Source of the DNA: Armatimonadota bacterium
GTDB lineage: Bacteria; Armatimonadota; UBA10988
Assembly (NCBI GenBank): GCA_016235455.1
Contig: JACRKZ010000119.1
Coordinates: forward strand, 1-55,605
DNA length: 55,605 nt
Reading direction: 5' to 3'
This document shows, piece by piece, positions 15,133 to 39,332 of this stretch. The notes under the pieces are model-generated. The model had not been told where the DNA came from and did not search any database. It worked only from the letters and a program-made list of their open reading frames with translations. Positions within the stretch are counted from its first letter, which is position 1, and every line of letters starts with the position of its first letter. The position numbers were made by a program, and so were the translations under genes.

Positions 15133-16509
15133 ATGAGCAGCGATCGCCGTGACTTCCTGCGCCGTGCTGGCGTCGGCGCGCTGGCCGCCACATTGGCCCG
15201 CGGCGCAGCGGCAGCCCCCCGACCCAACGTGCTGTTCGTCCTGGCCGACGATATGCGTCCCGACTGCATCGGCGCCATGGGCAACGCGCACATCCGCACG
15301 CCGCACCTGGACGAACTGGTCGGCCGCGGCATGGCCTTCACTCGCGCCTACGTGCAGGGCGCCAACAGCGGCGCCGTCTGCACGCCCAGTCGCACCATGA
15401 TCCTAAGCGGGCGCAGCGTCTATCACCACACCAACGGCGGGTTCGCCAAAGGCAACACCGGCCCCGAGGCGCTGTGGGCCACCACCATGGCCGCCGCCGG
15501 CTACGAGACCTTCCATCTGGGCAAGCGCGGCAACTCCTATCTGCCAGGCATGAAAGCGTTCGAGACCTGCCTGTTCACCGAGCAGATCGGCGCCGACCAG
15601 CACGAGGTGGCCAGCGAGAGGTGCGCCGACCGCGTGATCGCCTTCCTGCGCGAACGCCGCTCCGACCGCCCGTTCTTCACCTACCTGGCGCCGCCGGTGC
15701 CACACGATCCGCGCGTGGCGCCCAAGGCGTTCATGGACCTCTACGACCCCGACCAGATCCCCCTGCCGGCGCGCTACCTGCCGGTCCACCCGTTCGACAA
15801 CGGCGAGATGACCGTGCGCGACGAGAAGCTCGCGCCCTGGCCGCGCAGCGAGGCGGTCATCCGCCGCCACCTGGCCGACGACTACGCCTGCATCACCTGC
15901 CTCGACCACCACCTCGGCCGCATCGTGGCGGAGCTGCGCACTCAGAAGCAGCTCGACAACACGCTCATCGTCTTCGCCGGCGACAACGGCCTGTCGCTGG
16001 GCGACCATGGGCTGATGGGCAAGCAGAACCTCTATGAGTTCGGCGGGATGCACGTGCCGCTGGTCTTCGCCGGGCCGGGCGTACCCCAGGGCCGCAGCGA
16101 TGCCTTCGCCTACCTGTTCGACGTCTACCCCACGGTCTGCGACCTGACGGGCGTGCCCATCCCGCGCGAAGTGGAGAGCACCAGCCTCAGACCTGTGCTC
16201 ACCGGCACGCGACAGGCCGTGCACGACGTCATGTTCACCGGCTACCGCGCCTGCCAACGCGCGGTGCGCGACGACCGATGGAAGATCATCCGCTACCCGC
16301 TCGTCGACCGCACCCAGCTCTTCGACCTGGCCACCGACCCTTGTGAACTACACGACCTGGCCGACCGGCCCGAGCACGCGGCCAAGCTGGTCGAGATGAT
16401 GACTCTGCTGGCCGCCCAACAGAAGCGCTATGACGACCCGGTGCCGCTGACCGTGGCCCACCCGCAGCCCGCGGCGTGGACGCCACCAGCCAAGGGCGGC
16501 GCCGGCTGA
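15133..16509 (+). CDS. Sulfatase (choline-sulfatase-like), Tat-exported
   Basis: RRDFL Tat motif, PNVLFVLADD, CTPSR, PHDP, GDNG, GKQNLYE; GGAGG RBS. Confidence 0.92.
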   Translation: MSSDRRDFLRRAGVGALAATLARGAAAAPRPNVLFVLADDMRPDCIGAMGNAHIRTPHLDELVGRGMAFTRAYVQGANSGAVCTPSRTMILSGRSVYHHTNGGFAKGNTGPEALWATTMAAAGYETFHLGKRGNSYLPGMKAFETCLFTEQIGADQHEVASERCADRVIAFLRERRSDRPFFTYLAPPVPHDPRVAPKAFMDLYDPDQIPLPARYLPVHPFDNGEMTVRDEKLAPWPRSEAVIRRHLADDYACITCLDHHLGRIVAELRTQKQLDNTLIVFAGDNGLSLGDHGLMGKQNLYEFGGMHVPLVFAGPGVPQGRSDAFAYLFDVYPTVCDLTGVPIPREVESTSLRPVLTGTRQAVHDVMFTGYRACQRAVRDDRWKIIRYPLVDRTQLFDLATDPCELHDLADRPEHAAKLVEMMTLLAAQQKRYDDPVPLTVAHPQPAAWTPPAKGGAG

Positions 16510-27569: not shown

Positions 27570-27672
27570 GCAGAGCATCGCCGCGCAGCCGTTGGGCGTC
27601 CGATCAGGGCTTGACGGCGGAGCGTTCGCCCCGCGCCAGAGCCAACGCGGTTGGCCACGCCCGACGCCGCCT

Positions 27673-27701
27673 TTGCGCGCCGGCCGGCGTCGGTGTATCC
27701 T
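27673..27701 (+). promoter_or_regulatory. Putative promoter of the RND operon
   Basis: TTGCGC-N17-TATCCT just upstream of GTG 27712. Confidence 0.4.
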
Positions 27702-27711
27702 GACACCGAGG

Positions 27712-29724
27712 GTGAGCGCCGAATTGACCTCTTTGAGCAAGGCAAAATGGATAGCCGGGCTGGTGCTGGCCGCCGGCGTGGTGGTCGGGCTGGCCCTGTG
27801 GCAGCGCCCGCGACCGCCTCAGGGCCTGACCAAGGCGCCGGCGGCCGTAGTGGCCGCGGCGGCGGTCACGCGCGGCCGGGTGGCCCAGAGCATCACGCTC
27901 AGCGGTACGTTGCAGCCGGTACAGCGCGTAGAGCTGTCGGCGCAGGTGCCGGCCAAGGTCAGCGCGGTCTACGTCAAGGAGGGCGACAGCGTGCCCGCGG
28001 GTGCCGTGCTGGCTCGGTTCGACGAGCGTGAGATGCGCGCCAACGTGGACAAGGCCGCCGCCGGCATACGCGCTGCCGCTGCCCAGGTGACCAAGGCGCG
28101 CGTGGGCGCCGAGATGACGCGCTCGCTGGCCGATGTGCGTGTCGATCGCGCCATGGACGGCATCAAGGCGGCCGACGCCCAGGTCAGCGGCGCGCGCGCG
28201 GGTGCCGAGGTCAGCGAGGCCAGCGCCAAGGCCCAGGTGAGCCAGGCGCTCAGCGGCATCGAAGCCGCCGAAGCCGCCGTGCTCCAGGCCGAGAAGGGCG
28301 CCGCGCTCAGTCGGCAACAGGCCGACAGCGACATTGCCACGGCCCAGGGCGGCCTGGCCGCCGCCGAGGCCGACCTCAAGCGCGCCACCAGCGGCGCCAG
28401 CGTCGGCTCCGATGCCGCCGCGGCCGATGTGGAGCGCGCCCGGGCCGGCGTGGCCACGGCCGAAGCCAATCTGGCCCGCGTCAAGGCCGGAGCACGCACC
28501 AGCGATGTCGAAGCCGCCGAGGCGCAGGTCAAGCAGGCCCGCATCGGTCGCGATGCCGCTAAGCGGGCCGTGGACGACCTGACCTATCTGCGCAAAAACG
28601 GCGGTGTCGCGGGCGCCGACCTGCAGCAGGCGCAGACCCAACTCGATATCTGCAACGCACAGGTGGACGCCGCCGAGGCGCAGTTGCGCGGCGCACGCGC
28701 CGGCGCCAGCGCCGAGGAAGTGGCCGCCGCCGAAGGCCAACTGCGCGAGGCCCGCGCCGGACTCAAGCAGGCCGAGGCCGGCCAGGGCCGGTCAAGCGTG
28801 TCGGCGGCCGAGATCGAGGCGGCGCGCGCCAATGTGGATCGCGCGCGCACGGGCCTGCAGTCGGCCGAGAAGGCCAAGGCCGAACGTTACGGTCTGGCCG
28901 AAGCGCAGGTGCGCGCGGCGCGCGCGGCGGTGGAGCAGGCGCGAGCTGGCCACGGCGCCGCGGTGTCGGGGCTCGGCGTGGGCAAAGTGCGGCAGGCGGA
29001 AGTGGCCGCGGCCCAGGGCAACCTGGCGCAAGCCGGCGGCGGGCTGCGTGAAGCGCAGGTGGGCCGGCGCGAGGCCGAGGTGCGCGCCGCCGACCTGGCC
29101 GCCGCGCAAGCCGGGCTGCTGGCCGCGCAGGCCGACTATCGACTGGCCGCCGAGCAGATCGCCAAGTGCCAACTCGTCTCGCCGGTGGCGGGCCAGGTGA
29201 CCAAGCTGGCGCTCCATGCCGGCGACGCCGTCATGCCCGGCATGCCGCTGGCCGCCGTGGAGACCAAGGCCGCCGCGGAGCTGGTCTGTCTGGTCTCGGG
29301 CGACCAGCGCGCGCAACTGCGGGCCGGCCAACCGGCGCGAGTCAAGGTGGACGGCAGCAAGCGCGAGTTCACGGCCACGGTGCGCGAGGTGGCCACCTCG
29401 GCCGAGGCCGATGGCCGCACTTTCCGGGTGCGCCTGCTGGTCGCCGGCGACGGCCTGCTGCCCGGTGCGCGCGCCACCTGCGAGGTCGACGTGGCGGTCG
29501 ACGACGCGGCGCTGTGCGTGCCGCTGCCCGCGGTCCAGGATGTCGACGGCGAGGCGCCACATGTGTTTGTCACCCAAGCCGGCCGAGCGGTGCGGCGGCC
29601 GGTGACACTGGGGTTGCGCTCAACGGCCACCGCGCAGGTGGTCGAGGGCTTGGCCGAAGGTGACCTGGTCGTCGTCTCGGGCGCCGAGAACCTGCACGAC
29701 GGGTCCGCGGTGGACACGCGTTAG
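27712..29724 (+). CDS. RND efflux periplasmic adaptor (MFP) with a very long alpha-helical hairpin
   Basis: N-terminal TM, lipoyl halves (VKEGDSVPAGAVL; SPVAGQV), beta-barrel and membrane-proximal motifs; start uncertain (27712 or 27733). Confidence 0.88.
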   Translation: MSAELTSLSKAKWIAGLVLAAGVVVGLALWQRPRPPQGLTKAPAAVVAAAAVTRGRVAQSITLSGTLQPVQRVELSAQVPAKVSAVYVKEGDSVPAGAVLARFDEREMRANVDKAAAGIRAAAAQVTKARVGAEMTRSLADVRVDRAMDGIKAADAQVSGARAGAEVSEASAKAQVSQALSGIEAAEAAVLQAEKGAALSRQQADSDIATAQGGLAAAEADLKRATSGASVGSDAAAADVERARAGVATAEANLARVKAGARTSDVEAAEAQVKQARIGRDAAKRAVDDLTYLRKNGGVAGADLQQAQTQLDICNAQVDAAEAQLRGARAGASAEEVAAAEGQLREARAGLKQAEAGQGRSSVSAAEIEAARANVDRARTGLQSAEKAKAERYGLAEAQVRAARAAVEQARAGHGAAVSGLGVGKVRQAEVAAAQGNLAQAGGGLREAQVGRREAEVRAADLAAAQAGLLAAQADYRLAAEQIAKCQLVSPVAGQVTKLALHAGDAVMPGMPLAAVETKAAAELVCLVSGDQRAQLRAGQPARVKVDGSKREFTATVREVATSAEADGRTFRVRLLVAGDGLLPGARATCEVDVAVDDAALCVPLPAVQDVDGEAPHVFVTQAGRAVRRPVTLGLRSTATAQVVEGLAEGDLVVVSGAENLHDGSAVDTR

Positions 29725-29743
29725 AAGGAACCCCGCAAGCACC

Positions 29744-32700
29744 ATGTGGTTGACCCGCCTGGCCATCGACCGACCGTTCATCACCGCGCTCATGTGCGCG
29801 GTGCTGCTCTTTGGCGGCCTGTTCAGCGGGCTCAACCTGCCGGTCGACCTCAACCCCAAGGCCGACCTGGCCACGCTGACCATCACCTGCATCTATCCGG
29901 GCGCATCGCCGGCCAATGTCGAGACGTCGGTGGCCAAGCCGCTGGAGGAGTGCCTCAAGTCGGTGGCGCGGCTGGACCACCTGATGACCATCAGCCAGGA
30001 CAGCGTCTGCTACTCGTTCGCCGAGTTCAGCGTGGGCACCGACTCCGGCGAGGCCCAGGATGCCTGCCGTGAGGCCATCAGCGCGGCCCGGTCGCGCTTC
30101 CCCGCGGGGATGCTGGATCCCGTGCTGGCCAAGCTGGACATCAATGCCCAGCCCGTGCTGTTCCTTGGCGTCAGCGGCCCGCGCAGCCCCGAGGAGCTGC
30201 GGTCGCTGGCCAAGGACGTGGTCGAGCCCAGACTGCGCTCGGTACGAGGCGTCACCGCGGTCGAAGTGCTCGGCGGCCGCGAGCGCGAGGTGCATGTCGA
30301 GATCGACCGCGAGAAGCTGCTGTCTTCGGGCCTGACCATCACGCGCGTGGCCCAAGTGGTCGAAGGTGCCAACGTTAATGTGCCAGGTGGCAATCTGGAG
30401 CGCGGCAACGAGGCGCGCGGCGTGCGCCTGGTCGGCCGGTTCGCCAACCTTGACGATGTCCGCGGCGTGCCGCTGCCACCGCCCGATGACCCCGGCCGGC
30501 TGATCGAGCAGGCCATGCGCCCCCAAGCCCCGCATCAGCCCAATCGCGCGCTGCGGCTGGGCGACATCGCCACGGTGGCCCTGCGCGCGGTGGAGCCCGA
30601 GGTGCGCGTACGGCTGCAGCAGGCCGAGGCGGTGGGCATCATCGTCACCAAGCGCGGCGACGGCAACACCATCCGCATCGCCCGCGAGGCCCTGGCCGCA
30701 GCCCAGAGCGCGCCACTGCCCGAAGGCGTCAAGATCATCGTCGCCCGCGACCAGGCGCGCACGGTGTCCGAGGCGCTGACGGATGTCAATGTCAGCCTGG
30801 CCCTTGCGGTGCTGCTCTGCGCGGCGGCCATCCTGCTGTTTCTGCGCAATGCGCGGGCCACGGCCATCGTCTGCACGACCATCCCGGTCTGCCTGCTCGG
30901 CGCGCTGGCGCCCATGGCCTGGGGCGGCCACACCATCAACCAGATGACGCTGCTCGGCCTGGCCATCAGCATCGGCATCCTGGTCGACGACAGCATCGTC
31001 TGCATCGAGGCCATCACCCATCGGCTGCAGCAGGGCGAACCTGCCGCCGAGGCGGCCTTCAACGGCCGGAACGACATCGCCCTGGCCGACACCTCGACCA
31101 CGCTGCTGGACGTCGCCGTCTACGGGCCGATCGCCTTCATGGCCGGCACCGTGGGCCAGTTCTTCCGCGACTTCGGCTTCGTCGTGGCGGTCACCGCCGG
31201 GCTGTCGCTGTTTGCCGCCTACACCATCGTGCCATCCATGGCCGCGCGCTTCTACCGCGACCGGCCGCCCAGCGGCCGCGAGCTGGAGCAGAGCCCCGCC
31301 CTGGAGCGGCTCACCGGACGCTACCACGTCGTGCTCGAATGGGCGCTGCGGCACCGCGGACGCACGTTGATCATCGGCTGGACGGGCCTGGCCCTGGCCG
31401 GCCTGCTCGCCTGGCAGTGCCTGGGCATCGACCTCATTCCCGCCGCCGACCTGAGCACCATCGCCGTCAACATCGAGCTGCCCGGCGCCGCCGGCGCCAA
31501 GGCCACCGAGCAGACCGTGGCCAGCGCCGAAAAGCTGATCGGCGCTATCCCGGAGGTGGATACGCTGTTCACCACGCTCGGCCGCATCGAGGTGGGCTTC
31601 GGCGTGGTCAGCCGCATGGGCCCGCGCTACGCGCAGATCAATGTCACACTGCGCGACAAGCGCGGCATGGTCGACCGGCTCACGTTCCGCGGGCGCGGAC
31701 TGCGGACGCGCAGCGACGACGCCGTGGCCGCAGAGGTCCGCACCAGGCTGCGGGCCATTCCCGCCGCCAACTTCCAGGTCATCGCCGTGCATGGGTGGGG
31801 TGGCGCCGGCGCACCGGTCGACTTCAGCCTGTACGGCAAGGACGCGGCGCTGCTGGCGGCGGCCGGCGTCGAGGCGCTCGAGGGCCTGCGCACCATGCCC
31901 GGCCTGCTCGACCCCGACGTCGCCTGGCGCCTGGGCGAGCCCGAGGTGCAGGTCGAGATGCAGCGCGACCGCGCGCGCGAGTTGTACATCTACCCCGGCG
32001 TGGTGGCCCAGGAACTGCGCGCCTCGGTGGCCGGCACCGACGCCGGCACGTTCGAGCAGGGCGATGACGTACTGCCGGTCAAGGTGCGCCTGCGGCCTGT
32101 CGACCGCCGCGGCGAGAGCGATCTGGCGCGCATCCCCGTGGGGCGTAGCGCCAGCCGCGAGCTGACCATCGGCGACGTGGCCTCGCTCCGGTCCGCGGCC
32201 GGCCCAACGCGTATCGACCGCCGCGACGGCGTGCGCGACCTCAACTTCAAGGCCTACCTGGCCGCCGGAGTCAGCCTGGGCGAGGCCCAGAAGGCCATCA
32301 CGGCCATGGTGACCCGCCTCGGCGTGGCCAGCGAGAAGGACCCCGCGAGCACGCCGTCCGCCAAATACGCCGGGCTGCGCTGGGGTTGGCGGGGCGACGC
32401 CGCCACCATGGCCGAGAGCACCAAGTACATGGTCGGCACTGGCCTGCTCGGACTCACCCTGGCCTACCTGGTCATGGCGGTGCTGTTCAACAGCGCACTC
32501 CATCCGCTGACCATCCTGCTGTCGGTACCCATGGCCGGCACGGGTGGCCTGCTGCTACTCGCGGTCACGGGCTCCAGCCTGTCCATCGTCAGCGGCATCG
32601 GCTTCATCCTGCTCATCGGCATCGTGGTGCGCAACGCCATTCTGCTGATCGACTACACGCTGCAGCTCCGCGCCCAAGGCGTCGAACGCCACCACGCTGT

Positions 32701-32920
32701 CGTTCAGGCCGGCCTGCGCCGCCTGCGGCCCATCCTCATGACCACCTTCACCACCACCGTGGGCATGCTGCCCGTGGCCCTCGGCCTGGGCAAGGGCGCC
32801 GAGATCCGCTCCCCGATGGCCGTCGCGGTCATCGGTGGCCTGCTGCTCTCCACCTTGCTCACGCTGGTCATCATCCCCGTTACCTACACGCTGCTGGACG
32901 ACTGGTTCGGCCGCCCCTGA
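29744..32920 (+). CDS. AcrB/AcrD/AcrF family RND transporter
   Basis: [41 protein letters not shown]. Confidence 0.95.
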
Positions 32921-33018
32921 CCCGCCGACTCGCCGACTCCCCCAGATAGCCGGAACCCCTCGGCCGCTGGCCGCCTCCCTTGTCCATGGGCGCGAACCTG
33001 CTCCTGGTGCACGTTTGC

Positions 33019-33113
33019 GTGGCTGTCAACAGCCACCAGGCCCGACTGTAGCCGGATTGTTACATGGCCGACAAGAAAGGCCTTGCATGTGAGGGGGGGC
33101 CGTGGGGTATAAT
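33019..33113 (+). promoter_or_regulatory. Upstream region of sigma factor 1: palindrome, TGT-N12-ACA site and promoter
   Basis: GTGGCTGT-ca-ACAGCCAC (33019-33036); TGTAGCCGGATTGTTACA (33047-33064); TTGCAT-N19-TATAAT (33083-33113, long spacer). Confidence 0.45.
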
Positions 33114-33225
33114 CCCGTAACCAGGTTAATGGTTTCGCCCCGCGGGGGCGAGGAGCGGATCGGGCAGAGGAGGCCAGGCCGAGCGAGGGAGCTGGGACTG
33201 GCGTGACGAGGAAGGGAGCAGGGCA

Positions 33226-34161
33226 GTGGAACCGACACAGGCCTTGGATTGGGATCCGACCTTGGAAGACGATGCCTACGGTGACGACGACGAGGTCGCC
33301 GAGCGCGATACGAACGAACCGATGCCCCGGGCCGAGGGCATGGGCGTGGCCAGTGCGCCGCGCAATATGAACCTGCTGACGCGGGAGGAAGAGATCAGCC
33401 TGGCCAAGCTGGTTGAGCGCGGTGATCAGGAAGCGCGGCAGCGGCTGATCGACGCCAATCACCGCCTGGTCTTCAGCGTGGTGAACAAGTACCGCTACAG
33501 CGGCGTGCCGCTGGAGGATCTGGTGCAGGAGGGTTTCCTGGGCCTGATCGCCGCGGCGGACAAGTTTGACTACCGGCGCAACTGCCGGTTCTCCACGGTG
33601 GCCACGATCTGGATCCGCGCGCACGTGCTGCAAGCCATCCAGAACCTGCGCCCGCTGGTGCACGTGCCGCAACGCGTGGCCAACGCGGCCAAGCGCATGT
33701 GGCGCGCCACCGAGGAGCTGACCCAGGAACTCGAGCGCAAGCCCACCGCCGACGAGCTGGCCACCAAGCTGAGCCTCGAGGCGGGGCGCGTGGACGAACT
33801 GAGCCGCATCTCGCAAGACTGGCTCAGCCTCGACGAGCCGCTGGGTGACGAAGGCGACACCTCCATGATGGAGATGGTGGCCGACGACGCGCAAGGCGCG
33901 CCGGCGCTGGCTGCGCAACGCAGCTGCCTGCGCGAACAGCTCAAGGTGGCCATGGGCCGGCTCACCGACCGCGAGCAGATCGTGCTGCGACTGCGCTTCG
34001 GGCTCGACGATGGCCAGGAGCGCACACTTGACGAGATTGGCCGCCAGTTCGACCTGACGCGCCAGCGCATCAAGGAGATCGAGACCGCGGCGCTGGCCAA
34101 GCTGCGCAACGGTGGGCCCGCCCGCCAGCGGCTGGAACCGGCCTGGGCGGCTGGCAGCTAG
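33226..34161 (+). CDS. RpoD/SigA-like sigma-70 factor lacking region 1.1, non-canonical
   Basis: LLTREEEISLA (r1.2), DLVQEG.LGL..A.DKFD (r2), SLDEPLG (r3.2), LRLRFGL..RTLDEIG (r4). Confidence 0.92.
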   Translation: MEPTQALDWDPTLEDDAYGDDDEVAERDTNEPMPRAEGMGVASAPRNMNLLTREEEISLAKLVERGDQEARQRLIDANHRLVFSVVNKYRYSGVPLEDLVQEGFLGLIAAADKFDYRRNCRFSTVATIWIRAHVLQAIQNLRPLVHVPQRVANAAKRMWRATEELTQELERKPTADELATKLSLEAGRVDELSRISQDWLSLDEPLGDEGDTSMMEMVADDAQGAPALAAQRSCLREQLKVAMGRLTDREQIVLRLRFGLDDGQERTLDEIGRQFDLTRQRIKEIETAALAKLRNGGPARQRLEPAWAAGS

Positions 34162-34184
34162 GCTCCGATAGCACTCCTCAGACG

Positions 34185-34222
34185 CGACAAGGGCCCGGAT
34201 CCTAGGATCCGGGCCCTTGTCG
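34185..34222. terminator. Perfect 38-bp palindrome, probable bidirectional terminator
   Basis: CGACAAGGGCCCGGATCCT/AGGATCCGGGCCCTTGTCG between two convergent stop codons; TTGGGTTT follows on the + strand. Confidence 0.8.
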
Positions 34223-34262
34223 TTGGGTTTCGGGGTTGGGAGGGAGTTCTCTGCGTACTAAT

Positions 34263-35195
34263 CTAGTCGCCGGCCAGAGCCAACGCCGCCGAGAATTGCG
34301 GCCGATGGCGCAAGCGCCGTAGCGCGCTCTGCTCCAACTCGCGGGCACGCTGCCGGCTGATGCTCAACTCGCGGCCGACCTCGGCCAGGCTGCGCGGTTC
34401 GTCGGCGTCCAGGCCGAAGCGCAGCCGCAAGACTTCTTCCTCGCGCGGGGTCAAGTGCTTGAGGCCCTCATTGACATCCTCGCGCAGTTCGGCGAGCACA
34501 ATCAGTTCCTGCGCCGAAGGGTCACTGCTGGGGACCAGCCACTCTTCGGGCGGACGCCCGTCGTCCTGGTCGTTGCCGTCCAGCGAACTCGGCGGCGGCA
34601 CGACACGACGCGCCTCCTCCACCTGCTCGACACTCAGCCCCACGCGTCCAGACAGCTCCTCGGACGAGGGCAGCCGCTGCAACTCCTGGGTCAGAAACTC
34701 CTCTTCGCGGCGGATGCGGGCCGCGGTCTGCGCCAGCCGCTCGGGCACCGGCATGACCGCGCGCAGCCGCGTCGCGGCGCGCAGCACGGCGCCGCGAATC
34801 CACAGCAGCGCATAGGTGTTGAACCGGCAACCGCGCGCCAGGTCGAAGCGGTCAGCCGCCTCGATCAGGCCCAGGTTGCCTTCCTGAATAAGGTCCTCGA
34901 CCGGCACACCTGTGTGGCGGAACTTGCTCACCACGTGGAAGACGAGCCGATGGTTGGCCTCGATCAGCTGCCGCCGGGCCTCATCATCGCCCTGCGCCAC
35001 GCGCCGTGCGAGCACTCGCTCTTCCACCGCGCTCAGCAACGAGCCGCTGGCTGTATCACCGCCCGGGTAATACGTGCGCCACGCCGCCGCTGCCGCCACC
35101 GCAAACTCGCCGGAACTCGCCGGCATTGTGCGTCCCGCCTCGAACGACAACCGATCCCCACCATGCGCCATCGCCCTTGCCCTCTTGCGTCCCAT
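34263..35195 (-). CDS. Second RpoD/SigA-like sigma-70 factor, non-canonical
   Basis: LLSAVEERVLA, ANHRLVF, DLIQEGNLGLIEAADRFD, LTPREEEVLRLRFGL, SLAEVG; start uncertain. Confidence 0.9.
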   Translation of the reverse strand: MGRKRARAMAHGGDRLSFEAGRTMPASSGEFAVAAAAAWRTYYPGGDTASGSLLSAVEERVLARRVAQGDDEARRQLIEANHRLVFHVVSKFRHTGVPVEDLIQEGNLGLIEAADRFDLARGCRFNTYALLWIRGAVLRAATRLRAVMPVPERLAQTAARIRREEEFLTQELQRLPSSEELSGRVGLSVEQVEEARRVVPPPSSLDGNDQDDGRPPEEWLVPSSDPSAQELIVLAELREDVNEGLKHLTPREEEVLRLRFGLDADEPRSLAEVGRELSISRQRARELEQSALRRLRHRPQFSAALALAGD

Positions 35196-35328
35196 TCTGT
35201 ATCGGCGCGGCCCGCAATGCAGGAGCCAATTTGAGGAATCTGACCAACATTATCCAGTTGCCCCCGCATACGCCCGGGCGTGCCGACTCTGGCGCCTGAC
35301 CCAGCGCCTGAGCAAACCGATGATCGTA

Positions 35329-35342
35329 CGAACGCCTGTTTG
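35329..35342. promoter_or_regulatory. LexA SOS box, Gram-positive (Cheo) type
   Basis: CGAAC-GCCT-GTTTG matches CGAAC-N4-GTTYG, ending 8 bp upstream of the recA -35. Confidence 0.75.
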
Positions 35343-35350
35343 AAAAGCCC

Positions 35351-35379
35351 TTGCGCTGGGCTGGCGAGGTGGCTATAAT
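35351..35379 (+). promoter_or_regulatory. recA promoter
   Basis: TTGCGC-N17-TATAAT. Confidence 0.7.
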
Positions 35380-35409
35380 CGGCCCATGCGATCAGGAAGG
35401 GCAGACAAG

Positions 35410-36495
35410 ATGGCCAAGGACAAGCCGATTGGCAATGGCAAGGGTAGCAAGACGGACGCCCTGGCGGAGGCCATGGCGCAGGTCGAGAAGCAGTTTGGCG
35501 CCGGCGCGCTGATGCGGCTGGGCGACAGGCCGCGGCAGAAGATCGAAGTCATTCCCTCGGGCTCGCTGTCGCTGGACATCGCGCTGGGTGTGGGCGGCAT
35601 CCCGCGCGGGCGCATCATCGAGCTGTTTGGCGGGGAGTCGTCGGGCAAGACGACGCTGGCGCTGCACATGCTGTGTGAGGCGCAGCGCGCCGGCGGCGTG
35701 GGCGCCATCATCGACGCCGAGCACGCCATGGACCCGCAGTATGCCGCCAAACTGGGGCTCAACACCGACGAACTGCTCATCTCCCAGCCGGAGACCGGTG
35801 AGCAGGCGCTCGAGATCGCCGATGTGCTGGTGCGCAGCAGTGCGGTGGACCTGGTGGTCATCGACTCGGTGGCGGCGTTGACGCCGAAGGCCGAGATCGA
35901 GGGCGAGATGGGCGACCAGTTCGTGGGCCTGCAGGCGCGCATGATGAGCCAGGCACTGCGCAAGCTCGCGGGCAACCTCAACCGCTCCAACACGGCCATG
36001 ATCTTCATCAACCAGATCCGCGAGAAGATCGGCGTGATGTTCGGCTCGCCCGAAACCACGCCGGGCGGCCGCGCGCTCAAGTTCTATGCCAGTGTCCGCA
36101 TCAAGACCCGTCGCGTGCAGCAGATCAAAGAGGGCGGCGACGCCATCGGCAACGAGCACGTGGCGCAGGTGGTCAAGAACAAGGTCGCGCCGCCGTTCCG
36201 CGAGGCCAACTTCGAGATCATCTACGGTCTTGGCGTCAGCCATGCCGGCGAGCTGATCCAGCTCGGCGTGGACATGGGGCTGATCAAGAAGAGCGGCGCC
36301 TGGTTCAGTTGCGGTGAAGAGCGCATTGGCAACGGCCGTGAGGCAGCGCGCCGCTACTTGCAGGAGAATCCCGCTCTGGCCCTGCGCATCGAGAACCAGA
36401 TCCGCACCGGCCAAGGCCTGGAGGCACTGCCCGTGCCGCCCGAACTGGCCGATGGCGCGGCGACCGCGCCGGCAGCCCCGGCGGCGGGGGCGTGA
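35410..36495 (+). CDS. recA: Recombinase A
   Basis: [53 protein letters not shown]; alternative in-frame ATG at 35386. Confidence 0.99.
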
Positions 36496-36983
36496 GCAGC
36501 GATCCGGTGTCGGCGGCCTATCTGGCGGCGCTCCGGCTGCTGGACCGGCGCCGCTACACCGACCACCAACTGCGGACCAAGCTGACCGAGCAGGAGCACG
36601 CGCCAGAGAGCATCGATGCCGTGCTGGCGCGGCTCACTGCCTCGGGGTTGGTCGATGACCGGGCCTATGCCGAGGCCTACGTGCGCGATGGACAGACGCT
36701 GCGCGGCCACGGACGCCAGCGTCTGGCACGCGATCTGCGCCGTCGCGGCATTGACCGCGATGTGGTCGAGCTGGTACTCGACGAGCAGTATCCGCGCGAG
36801 GATGAGGCCGCGGTGGCGCTTGACCTGGCGCGCCGCCGAGCCCCCCGGCTGGCGGGGCTGCCACCCGACCAGGCGCGCCGGCGGTTGGCCGGCTACCTGG
36901 AGCGGCGCGGCCTCAACGCCCGCGCGGTCTGGGCGGCGGTCGACGCCGCGCTCAGCGACGTCGAACCCAACGGTGACGAGTAG
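36492..36983 (+). CDS. recX: Regulatory protein RecX
   Basis: Overlaps the recA stop (GTGA); [26 protein letters not shown]. Confidence 0.92.
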
Positions 36984-37022: not shown

Positions 37023-39332
37023 CTACTTGACCTCCACCACCTCCACCGCCAGCGGCGCCAGCTTGCCCACCAGCCGGCCACCGCGCACCTCCAGCGTCGG
37101 CGCTTGCCCGGGCAGCAGCTCGGCCAGACCCGTGGCAGCCACCAACGGCAGGTCGACCGGCTGCTCGGCCGTCGTCGGGTTGGCCAGGCAGGCCACGCGC
37201 CGGCCACCTTGCGTCCAAACCGCCGCGCGCACCTTGGCGTCCGCGCTGCTCAGGTCGGTGCGCTGGCCTTCCAGCAACCAGGGCTGCAGCCGCCTGATCT
37301 CGGCGGGCAGCGCCTTCATGGCCGCCCATAGCGCGGGGTTGGCGCGCATGTCGAAGTCCTGATCGCGGTAGGTGTAGTAGACCAGCCCCTTGGCGCCGGC
37401 GATGAGCGCCAGGTAGGTCAGGGCACGTTCCTCATCGGGCTTTGGCACGCGCCAGGTGTTGGGCTTGGCGTACCCGAACGCCTGCGGGATGGCCCAAATG
37501 GGCCGGCCCAGCGGTGTGGCCGCGCGCACCGCCGCGGCGATCATCTCGTACTCCTGGTCTAGGTCGGCGCCGCCGGTGTGGATGGGATAGGGATCCGGCG
37601 CGATGACCTCAGCCATGGCCGCATACCGTGGGTAAGCGGTCGGCACGCAGAGCGTCATGTAGGTCGGCACCGTGGCGTCGGCGTCCTTGATGCGGTTGTG
37701 CCGGGCCAGCATCTCCTCGGGCGCCACGCCCTGGCCGTCCGGCTCATCGCCGGGGTTCCAGGCCAGCACGGCGCGGTGCCCGCGGTAGCGCTCGATGGAC
37801 TTGGTCATGTCCACGCCGAACTCGGTGATGACTTTCACGCCGAGCCGGTCTGCCTCGTCCAACAGCGGCTGCCATTCGTCGAGGCCCTTCTGGCTCGCGT
37901 GCAGCGTGTTGTAGCCCGCAGCCGCGATCTCGCGCAGGCAGGCCAGCCGGTCCTCGGCCGGGAACGGCCACGACACATGGTAGAAGCCCATGGGGAAGAA
38001 CGGCTTGCCGTCGACCAGGGTGACCAGGTCGCCGGGCCGGACATAGACGCGCGGCGTCGGGTGTACGGTGAACCGCCGCTCGACCGAGGCCAGCACGTCG
38101 GCACCATGACGCAGCGCCATGACCAGCGTGTGCGGCCCGAGCTCCAGCTTGCCCACCGTGGCAACGCCGGCGCCCGTCTCGGGCAGCGGCAGCGGCCGTT
38201 CGGCGCCACCGTCCACACGCAGGCCAAGCCGCGGCGCGTCGCCGGGCAGGTCGTTGGGCGGCGCGGCCGAGACGGTGTAAGCCACGCTGTCTTGCCAGGG
38301 GTAGAGGTGGCGCTCGCGCAGGTCGAAGTTCAGCATGGCCGGCACATGCTGCACGAATTCGTAGTCGACCGGGTCGCCAGCGCCGGCGCTGATGGACAGC
38401 GTGACGCGCGTGTCGCCCCGCTGGCTGACGCGGTACGGAAGCACCACGTCCAGCGTCGCGCCGGGCGCGATGGCCGCGTCCTTGGTCGAGGTGACCGGCG
38501 CTTTGGCCTCCGGCTCAAGCACCGACAGGCTGACGCGGTAGGTCAGCGCCTGGGTGGTGTCGTTGGCCAACACCGCGTGGGCGGCATGCTGCCCGGGCCG
38601 TGGACCGCCAACGCTGGCGTCGGACAGCGACACACCACGCCGCCGCGCCTGACAGTGCAGCCAGCTGTTGGCCACCAGCGGCGATGCGGCCGCCTGGCCG
38701 TCGGCGCCCTTGAGCGAGAAGTGGCTGGTGACGACCACGGAGCCGCGGCCCAGGTCCTGCATGGCCAGCACGACGCCCTTGTCGCGCTCGGTCATCAGCG
38801 GTCGCCAGGCCGGGGCCAGGCCGGTGAGGTGCGCCCAGATGGTGGCGCGGTCGCCCAGAATCTGGCCCAGGTTGACCGGCGCCGTGAGGACCGAGCCGGC
38901 ACCCGGCACGGGGATGCCACCCGGCGCGCGGTCCTTGGGGCAGGGCTCGCTGCGGAGAGCGAAGGTCGGTCCCAGCCGGCCGAGCCATTTGTCGAGTACG
39001 GAGTCATAGCTGGCATCCGTGATCAGCAGCAGCCCACCCCGCTCGACGAACCGTCGCCAGGCGTCCGCGTGCGGCGCCATGTCGACCGTGTGCTCGTAGT
39101 TGGCCACGCTGGCTGCGACGACGATGTCGAACTCGTCCAGCCGGGCCACGAGGTCGGCGGTCTTCGTGTTCTCGAAGCCCTCGAACCGCCAGCCGAGCGC
39201 CTTGAGCGGCGCGTCCCATTCCTCGCGGAAGGCGTAGTCGCCCCAGGAGGAGTAGACGACGGCGACTCTGCGGGGTGGCTCATTGCCCGCGCCGATGGTC
39301 AACAGCGCCAGCATGGTCAGGACAGCACCCAT
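37023..39332 (-). CDS. Secreted multidomain protein: GATase-like N-terminus, Ig-like domains and a GH-like TIM barrel
   Basis: Signal peptide; FVERGGLLL; [38 protein letters not shown]. Confidence 0.65.

Follow-up and report, generated by a model that had tools for sequence, protein, structure and literature searches.

Two paralogous alternative sigma-70-family factors with fixed departures at primary-sigma residues in a family of Armatimonadota

Group 2 sigma factors, among them E. coli RpoS, mycobacterial SigB and cyanobacterial SigB-E, consist of regions 1.2, 2, 3 and 4, lack region 1.1 and the non-conserved insert and are about 310 amino acids (aa) long. They retain the residues with which primary sigmas read promoters and recognize near-canonical promoter sequences (PMC10216364). 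Alternative sigmas are described as having no W-dyad, with bulky hydrophobic residues in its place, and as trading melting power for stringent specificity (PMC4593229), and melting has been measured to rank WW > HW > QR (PMC10216364). Twelve sigma-A residues are 99.4-100% conserved among 1002 primary sigmas (Bae et al., PMC4593229, Table 3). Here we describe two convergent genes, sigX1 and sigX2, on a stretch of 55,605 nucleotides (the window) comprising positions 1 to 55,605 of contig JACRKZ010000119.1 from an Armatimonadota bacterium (assembly GCA_016235455.1). By sequence, their products are group-2-like in architecture, group-3-like in their reader residues and, according to curated models, members of no named subfamily. 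With a probability of roughly 0.75, we read them as two separate alternative sigmas that arose from one duplication within a single family, have their own promoter classes and regulons, and came to lie tail to tail through rearrangement.

sigX1 (33226-34161, + strand) encodes an alternative sigma-70-family factor of 311 aa with a GTG start, in which regions 1.2, 2, 3 and 4 are preceded by an acidic N-terminal tail. sigX2 (34263-35195, - strand) encodes a paralogous factor of 310 aa from its first ATG, or of 287 aa from the alternative start given in one public record (M24, position 35126). The genes are separated by 101 bp in a window of about 70% G+C, and the proteins are 47% identical across 247 aa. 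Regions 2, 3 and 4 occur in order in both, as is characteristic of the sigma-70 family, with Pfam scores for sigX1 and sigX2 of 57.9 and 67.7 bits (Sigma70 r2), 57.1 and 38.3 bits (r3) and 57.0 and 52.8 bits (r4) against cut-offs of 24-25. For region 1.2, with a cut-off of 22 bits, sigX1 scores above it at 28.0 and sigX2 slightly under it at 20.1, and neither protein has a Pfam match to region 1.1 (PF03979). The motifs ANHRLVF and CRF are present in both, together with STVATIWIRAH and TRQRIKEIE in sigX1 and NTYALLWIRGA and SRQRARELE in sigX2. An earlier note, made from the window's letters, had pointed to two convergent sigma factors of about 310 aa departing from the RpoD consensus; both open reading frames (ORFs) lie exactly where it placed them, all motifs it quoted are present and the changes proved to be fixed within each clade.

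The genome containing the window, 93% complete at 6.5 Mb in 185 contigs, has 25 Sigma70_r2 matches, and sigX1 and sigX2 are two of its five RpoD-like paralogs, neither of which is the housekeeping factor. The true primary sigma, encoded on contig C54, is 391 aa long with a longer N-terminal part and carries ANLRLVV, STYATWWIRQAITR and TRERIRQIE. C68 is a canonical group-2-like sigma with ordinary motifs, and C139 (near position 16357) is a partly derived RpoD-like sigma with STCATLWIKQA and SRQRIKQIE whose clade is conserved across the family (relatives L070, L071, L076 and L077). The remaining sigmas are SigB/F-like, FliA-like, one sigma-GGDEF fusion and proteins of the size of extracytoplasmic function (ECF) sigmas.

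Both proteins fall below the cut-off of every curated NCBIfam model. For RpoD (NF006666) the best scores are 249 bits (sigX1) and 187 bits (sigX2) against a cut-off of 572, and the corresponding values are 208.7 and 171.2 against 378.7 for RpoS, 210.3 and 166.1 against 464 for SigB, and 217.3 and 187.1 against 384.5 for Sig70-cyanoRpoD. The group 3 models give 121 against 323 (RpoH), 117 against 190 (FliA/WhiG) and 123 against 234 (SigBFG). The closest structures by sequence are SigA, RpoD, RpoS and SigB (7l7b_F at 1.5e-63; RpoS at about 1e-45). Membership of group 1 is ruled out by the missing PF03979 match, the RpoD scores below cut-off, the retention of 3 of the 12 primary-sigma residues and the separate primary sigma on C54. 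sigX1 and sigX2 share with group 2 the regions present, the regions absent and the length; by reader residues and curated models they fall outside it, with RpoS and SigB scores at about half the cut-offs and 3 of 12 residues each, whereas E. coli RpoS keeps 10. With group 3 (RpoH, FliA/WhiG, SigB/F/G) they share an altered W-dyad, in which a bulky hydrophobic residue precedes W (I-W in sigX1, L-W in sigX2; H-W in sigma32), and altered -12 and -35 readers, from which stringent, specialized promoter use would be expected. Unlike group 3 they keep the sigma1.2 segment, and their sequences resemble RpoD far more closely than any of the group 3 models, all of which score below cut-off, and their placement in the trees is likewise separate. 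MzaA of the MZA anti-phage system (NF041931) also matches over its sigma-70-family C-terminal 270 residues (214.5 and 181.4 bits), but MzaA is about 726 aa long with a long N-terminal part absent from sigX1 and sigX2, and membership was rejected on score, the cut-off being 800 bits.

Both clades were aligned to E. coli RpoD (K-12), whose numbering is used throughout. The twelve conserved residues (Y394, R397, W433, W434, Q437, R441, R451, V454, H455, E458, R465 and R468) were mapped from Taq to E. coli with an offset of 177 applied in this analysis. Of this set, sigX1 and sigX2 keep 3 each, the primary sigma on C54 keeps 11, and C68 and C139 keep 7 and 5. The changes in sigX1 are L384H, I388F, N409F, Y425C, Y430V, W433I, Q437A, T440L, R441Q, R451H, V454Q, H455R, E458N, R468E, E585Q, R588K and Q589E. 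Each is found in 28-29 of the 29 clusters of its clade (H455R, E585Q and R588K in 29; Y430V, W433I, Q437A, R441Q, E458N and Q589E in 28). In sigX2 the changes are L384H, Y394F, Y425C, W433L, Q437G, T440L, R451P, V454E, H455R, E458Q, R468E, E585Q and Q589E, most of them shared by 17-19 of the 19 clusters. More variation is seen at positions 451, 468 and 384, the last having H, Y or F within the clade. W433L, Q437G, H455R, E458Q, E585Q and Q589E are present in all 19, as is the retained Y430; R441 and R588 are retained as well. Replaced in both proteins are the residues reading -12 (Q437) and the extended -10 element (H455 and E458), the wedge (W433) and two -35 readers (E585 and Q589). As most -10, extended -10 and -35 reader residues are replaced, each sigma should use its own, non-canonical promoter class. 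Both proteins retain W434, F419, N383, L386, R584, R586 and the QEG core-binding motif of region 2.2; F419, N383 and L386 presumably belong to the -11A pocket and the -7T pocket region. With core-binding and several DNA-contact residues kept, both look functional.

The reading frames are unbroken in all genomes bearing them. Pairwise ratios of nonsynonymous to synonymous substitution (dN/dS; Nei-Gojobori, NG86) range from 0.23 to 0.52 for sigX1 (15 pairs) and from 0.25 to 0.48 for sigX2 (6 pairs), values that are rough and probably overestimates given dS of 0.6-1.2 and G+C at third codon positions (GC3) near 0.9. Both genes are under purifying selection on their new residue set and are not decaying.

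A quick tree built from 112 sigma sequences united the 37 rows of the sigX1 clade with the 23 rows of the sigX2 clade at an SH-aLRT support of 99 and set them apart from the primary, C68 and C139 clades. A careful IQ-TREE analysis of 56 rows supported sigX1 at 98/92, sigX2 at 100/99 and a group of both clades with one metagenome protein (P0255) at 95/80. Neither tree groups sigX1 and sigX2 with FliA or RpoH of E. coli or with the genome's own sigmas on C28 and C110. Deeper branching among the derived Armatimonadota sigma clades is poorly supported, with long branches present. On these trees the assignment of sigX1 and sigX2 as sister paralogs stands, with P0255 and the deeper branching as its caveats.

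The distribution of the two genes was surveyed in 201 genomes of the phylum, including seven species genomes of the order, six from the same family (f1) and one from a second family (f2). sigX1 orthologs are found in all six f1 genomes at 67-75% identity; matches of at least 70% identity occur only in the five other f1 genomes, and the next best matches, at 46-48%, are other sigmas. sigX2 orthologs are found in four of the seven order genomes (G000, which is the window genome, G015, G043 and G069) at 64-70% identity, whereas G056 (80% complete), G029 (93% complete) and the sole f2 genome yielded none. In a protein collection, 32 clusters match sigX1 at 53-95% identity and 18 clusters match sigX2 at 59-95%; beyond these, identity falls to 49% or less, mainly to primary sigmas. 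Homologs bearing names come from metagenome-assembled genomes (MAGs) labelled Armatimonadetes or Fimbriimonadaceae. When a profile of both clades was run against 1.84 billion representatives, the top two matches were the clade representatives (462 and 425 bits), and 120 of the 148 other representatives among the matches listed carry the canonical STYATWWIRQ-type motif. Related derived proteins bearing names are few and all from Armatimonadota (an Abditibacteriales group with the motif WIE, and C139-like proteins). As far as found, both clades thus appear confined to one Armatimonadota family of Fimbriimonadia-like MAGs. Literature on Armatimonadetes and Fimbriimonas sigma factors, apart from supplementary tables, which may list them, yielded gene counts and nothing on sigX1 or sigX2; one such count gives "three rpoD" for F. 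ginsengisoli (PMC4072686). The earlier note's view of a lineage-specific paralog pair is upheld by the 95/80 node including P0255 and by the restriction to one family, and its expectations that the pair would lie outside characterized clades and show no relaxed selection agree with the NCBIfam scores far below cut-off, the silence of the literature covered and dN/dS values that are not near 1.

The tail-to-tail position of sigX1 and sigX2 is not a conserved functional module. The two genes are neighbors in one of the four genomes with both, the window genome itself, and lie on different contigs in the other three (G015, G043 and G069), with lengths of 127 kb and 50 kb for the two contigs of G015. 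In G056, of the same genus, sigX1 follows the same resistance-nodulation-division (RND) pump and nothing matching sigX2 or recA lies downstream. The order RND pump-sigX1 is limited to this genus (the window genome and G056) and is not found in the four other genera. sigX2 is divergent from recA, or recA-recX, in three of the four sigX2 genomes (G000, G069 and G015), and in G043 it is present without recA beside it. The surroundings of both sigma genes are almost wholly reshuffled between genera, and the neighbors map to many different contigs of the window genome. Armatimonadetes genomes have been described as disorganized, with abundant sigma factors proposed as a means of regulation (PMC4959169), and the scrambled order around the sigX loci agrees with this picture.

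Between the two stop codons lies a perfect palindrome of 38 bp (34185-34222; 19-nt arms, no spacer, 100% complementary) that occurs once in the genome and contains nested GGGCCC, GGATCC and CCTAGG sites. It forms a stem of 17-18 bp, with -53.6 and -45.1 kcal/mol when flanks are included, and is the exact meeting point of the RND pump-sigX1 block and the sigX2-recA-recX block. It is plausibly a bidirectional terminator shared by both genes, despite a weak U-tract on the + strand. The contigs of three public runs end exactly at this palindrome, which matches the 38-letter contig at their break. A palindrome of this kind necessarily interrupts a canonical 31-mer graph, so these contig ends are expected. 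Flank depths at the junction are 9.69/9.75, 31.2/28.6 and 5.25/6.6 in the three runs, and no flanks other than the window's two sides are shown at the palindrome node. With equal depths and no other partner shown, the junction is probably genuine, although the source sample may be among these runs and the depths are then not independent proof.

We infer that sigX1 and sigX2 have a new promoter specificity, melt promoters more slowly or more stringently and control independent regulons. A duplication inside a Fimbriimonadia-like Armatimonadota family would have produced both genes, whose products would bind core polymerase via the surfaces kept in regions 2.2 and 4 and would each steer it to promoters unlike TTGACA/TATAAT, controlling a regulon of their own. 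A rearrangement may then have joined the RND-pump-sigX1 block to the sigX2-recA-recX block at the palindromic terminator. The weakened melting suggested in the earlier note holds in so far as the melting residues are changed and kept so by purifying selection; against the published W-dyad view, the I-W and L-W pairs are the ordinary appearance of an alternative sigma and no special feature. Several points weigh against two separate alternative sigmas of this origin. The evidence for new specificity consists of residue changes, the dN/dS ratios are rough, and the node uniting sigX1 and sigX2 without P0255 is weak in the careful tree (74/40). The family sample is six genomes, mostly fragmented MAGs, and adjacency may occur elsewhere in the genus; a 95%-identical relative (P0003, P0123) exists outside the adjacency count. 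The junction, moreover, sits at a perfect palindrome, a spot prone to assembler error.

Other explanations start from the position of the genes or from the loss of consensus residues. If sigX1 and sigX2 were a functional pair, that is, a switch, a cascade or competitors whose expression is coupled by convergent transcription across the shared hairpin, one would point to their being nearest paralogs, lying 101 bp apart with one strong hairpin between them, and having E585Q and Q589E of region 4.2 in common, with position 588 unlike. Their separation in the three other genomes with both, the failure to find sigX2 in two of the six family genomes and the absence of the arrangement from same-genus G056 speak against this, and, the adjacency not being conserved, the two do not form a module. 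In addition, the 32 sigX1-like and 18 sigX2 clusters have no longest contig in common except the window's own, which is a weak test, and in region 2.4 the -10 readers at 430/433/437/441 differ (V/I/A/Q in sigX1 and Y/L/G/R in sigX2), suggesting different promoters. We regard a functional pair as quite unlikely, and the two-sigma switch, cascade or competing pair raised in the earlier note loses its footing with adjacency in one of four genomes. Nor do the genes amount to the undescribed regulatory system for which it took them to be the best candidate; they look like ordinary, so far uncharacterized alternative sigmas. Could the adjacency instead be an assembly chimera formed at the palindrome? 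The synteny breakpoint coincides exactly with it and the public-run contigs break there, but 31-mer graphs have to break at that site, depths match in three runs, only the window flanks are shown and reads longer than 38 bp span the palindrome; this makes a chimera very improbable. Decaying or neutral extra rpoD copies without a function of their own would account for the loss of many residues invariant in primary sigmas. We find this barely credible, as the frames are whole in all genomes, the replacements are fixed in the 29 sigX1 and the 19 sigX2 clusters, all 21 pairs have dN/dS values under 0.55 and core-binding and several DNA-contact residues are retained.

The neighborhood of sigX2 raises the possibility of a DNA-damage-linked sigma, in which a LexA-type operator, perhaps common with recA, would let the SOS response raise sigX2 and a secondary regulon. 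recA begins in an ORF from 35386, its likely start being the ATG at 35410 (+ strand), and is followed by recX (36492-36983, + strand), the recA-recX block (35386-36983) being the conserved neighbor of sigX2. The divergent spacer contains a recA control region (35330-35380, + strand) composed of the box GAACGCCTGTTT (35330-35341), which we take to be of the LexA/Cheo type, and a TTGCGC (35352-35357)-17 nt-TATAAT (35375-35380) promoter, the box ending 10 nt upstream of it. These blocks are conserved in two other genera (G069 and G015, the latter with the box GAACATTTGTTC), and a lexA gene is present on contig C159. The divergent order in three of four sigX2 genomes, the conserved Cheo-like box and the presence of lexA would fit such a link. 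The box, however, adjoins recA's own promoter and lies 135-200 nt from the sigX2 start, G043 has sigX2 without recA, no sigX2 promoter was recognized by eye in the spacer at 35127-35329, and the three genomes with the divergent order are close kin, so that common order may be simple inheritance. With a canonical promoter of its own, recA is also not visibly dependent on sigX2. We consider a damage-linked sigX2 unlikely. A broader proposal, tentative and on balance doubtful, is that sigX1, sigX2, the C139 clade and the WIE clade are an Armatimonadota-wide radiation of RpoD-derived sigmas with new promoter classes, which would organize regulons in genomes known for scattered operons. Within it, sigX1 might form the second tier of a cascade leading from an ECF sigma to sigX1 and rewired to a TATAAT promoter in this genus. 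The C139 clade and the WIE group (P0262/P0271/P0273/P0291) share with sigX1 and sigX2 the motifs GVP-x-EDLIQEG and [C/T]RFST, the loss of W433 and S/T-RQR in region 4.2. Both are nevertheless separate clades; the C139 clade, unlike sigX1 and sigX2, keeps Q437 and R441, and in the Abditibacteriales-type group WIE replaces WIR. Neither provides sigX1 or sigX2 with a functional assignment.

Read as two separate alternative sigmas, sigX1 and sigX2 add new members to the alternative sigmas with changed promoter specificity, and they do not reveal a novel type of regulatory system. Besides its primary sigma, this single family has at least three RpoD-like sigmas that are derived and fixed; they offer concrete targets for new promoter classes in a phylum that is poorly studied. 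The public annotation of the sigX2 clade as "RpoD/SigA" is misleading.

The upstream region of sigX1 (33083-33128, + strand) consists of TTGCAT (33083-33088), 19 nt, TATAAT (33108-33113), CCCG and the palindrome TAACCAGGTTA (33118-33128), 108 nt upstream of the GTG. The core TAACC-NN-GTTA is found upstream of sigX1 in all six family genomes. As TAACCNGGTTA occurs once in the 6.5-Mb genome, close to the 1.2 expected by chance, the case for function rests on conservation upstream of sigX1, which suggests a role of the palindrome in control. GGAAC stands exactly 20 nt before the palindrome in G015, G029, G043 and G069, with a variable intervening spacer, and in this genus (G000 and G056) a TTGC-type -35 element and a TATAAT or TATACT -10 element take its place. 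ECF-type promoters have the consensus GGAAC-N17-sGTT, and GGAAC-N20-TAACCNNGTTA may, as a lead only, be read as such an ECF-like promoter. The ECF-like pattern GGAAC-N15-18-[CG]GT[TC] was found upstream of none of the 25 sigma genes of the window genome, against a genome-wide background of 652 matches. GGAAC-N20-TAACC as a regulon motif has 0-2 sites per genome in five genomes, no more than the 1-11 of a reversed-pattern control; lacking any excess, it is specific to sigX1 upstream regions and defines no detectable promoter class. A consensus scan of 32800-35500 called no sigma-70-like promoter (0.2 expected) and no terminator (1.6 expected), as TTGCAT-N19-TATAAT and a hairpin without a T-run fall outside its rules.

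Upstream of sigX1, a block at 27592-32920 encodes a HlyD-family membrane-fusion protein (27592-29724, + strand) and an AcrB-family RND pump (29660-32920, + strand), both assigned by Pfam, and a sulfatase gene also lies on this side. No candidate anti-sigma gene was found beside sigX1 or sigX2 in the window, which was the extent of the search, an unlinked anti-sigma lying outside it. The only conserved ORF downstream of sigX1, cysteine-rich and 120-131 aa long, is on the same strand in four other genera, or four of the five other genomes (L056 7820-8182; L057 6344-6739; L058 4606-4989; L059 7797-8192). Judged from its motifs alone, it looks like an IscA/HesB-type iron-sulfur carrier. It was considered as an anti-sigma factor and rejected, being carrier-like and having a homolog on contig C77 of the window genome. 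On the far side of recX, the - strand at 37023-39332 contains an ORF of 769 aa whose GC3 is high and which matches no Pfam family at E <= 0.001. The sigma-GGDEF fusion of the window genome (C163:7512-8840; L017:1405-2730) is a 442-aa protein in which sigma-70 regions 2, 3 and 4 are followed by a C-terminal GGDEF domain (Pfam 96.7 bits) whose signature looks degenerate by eye.

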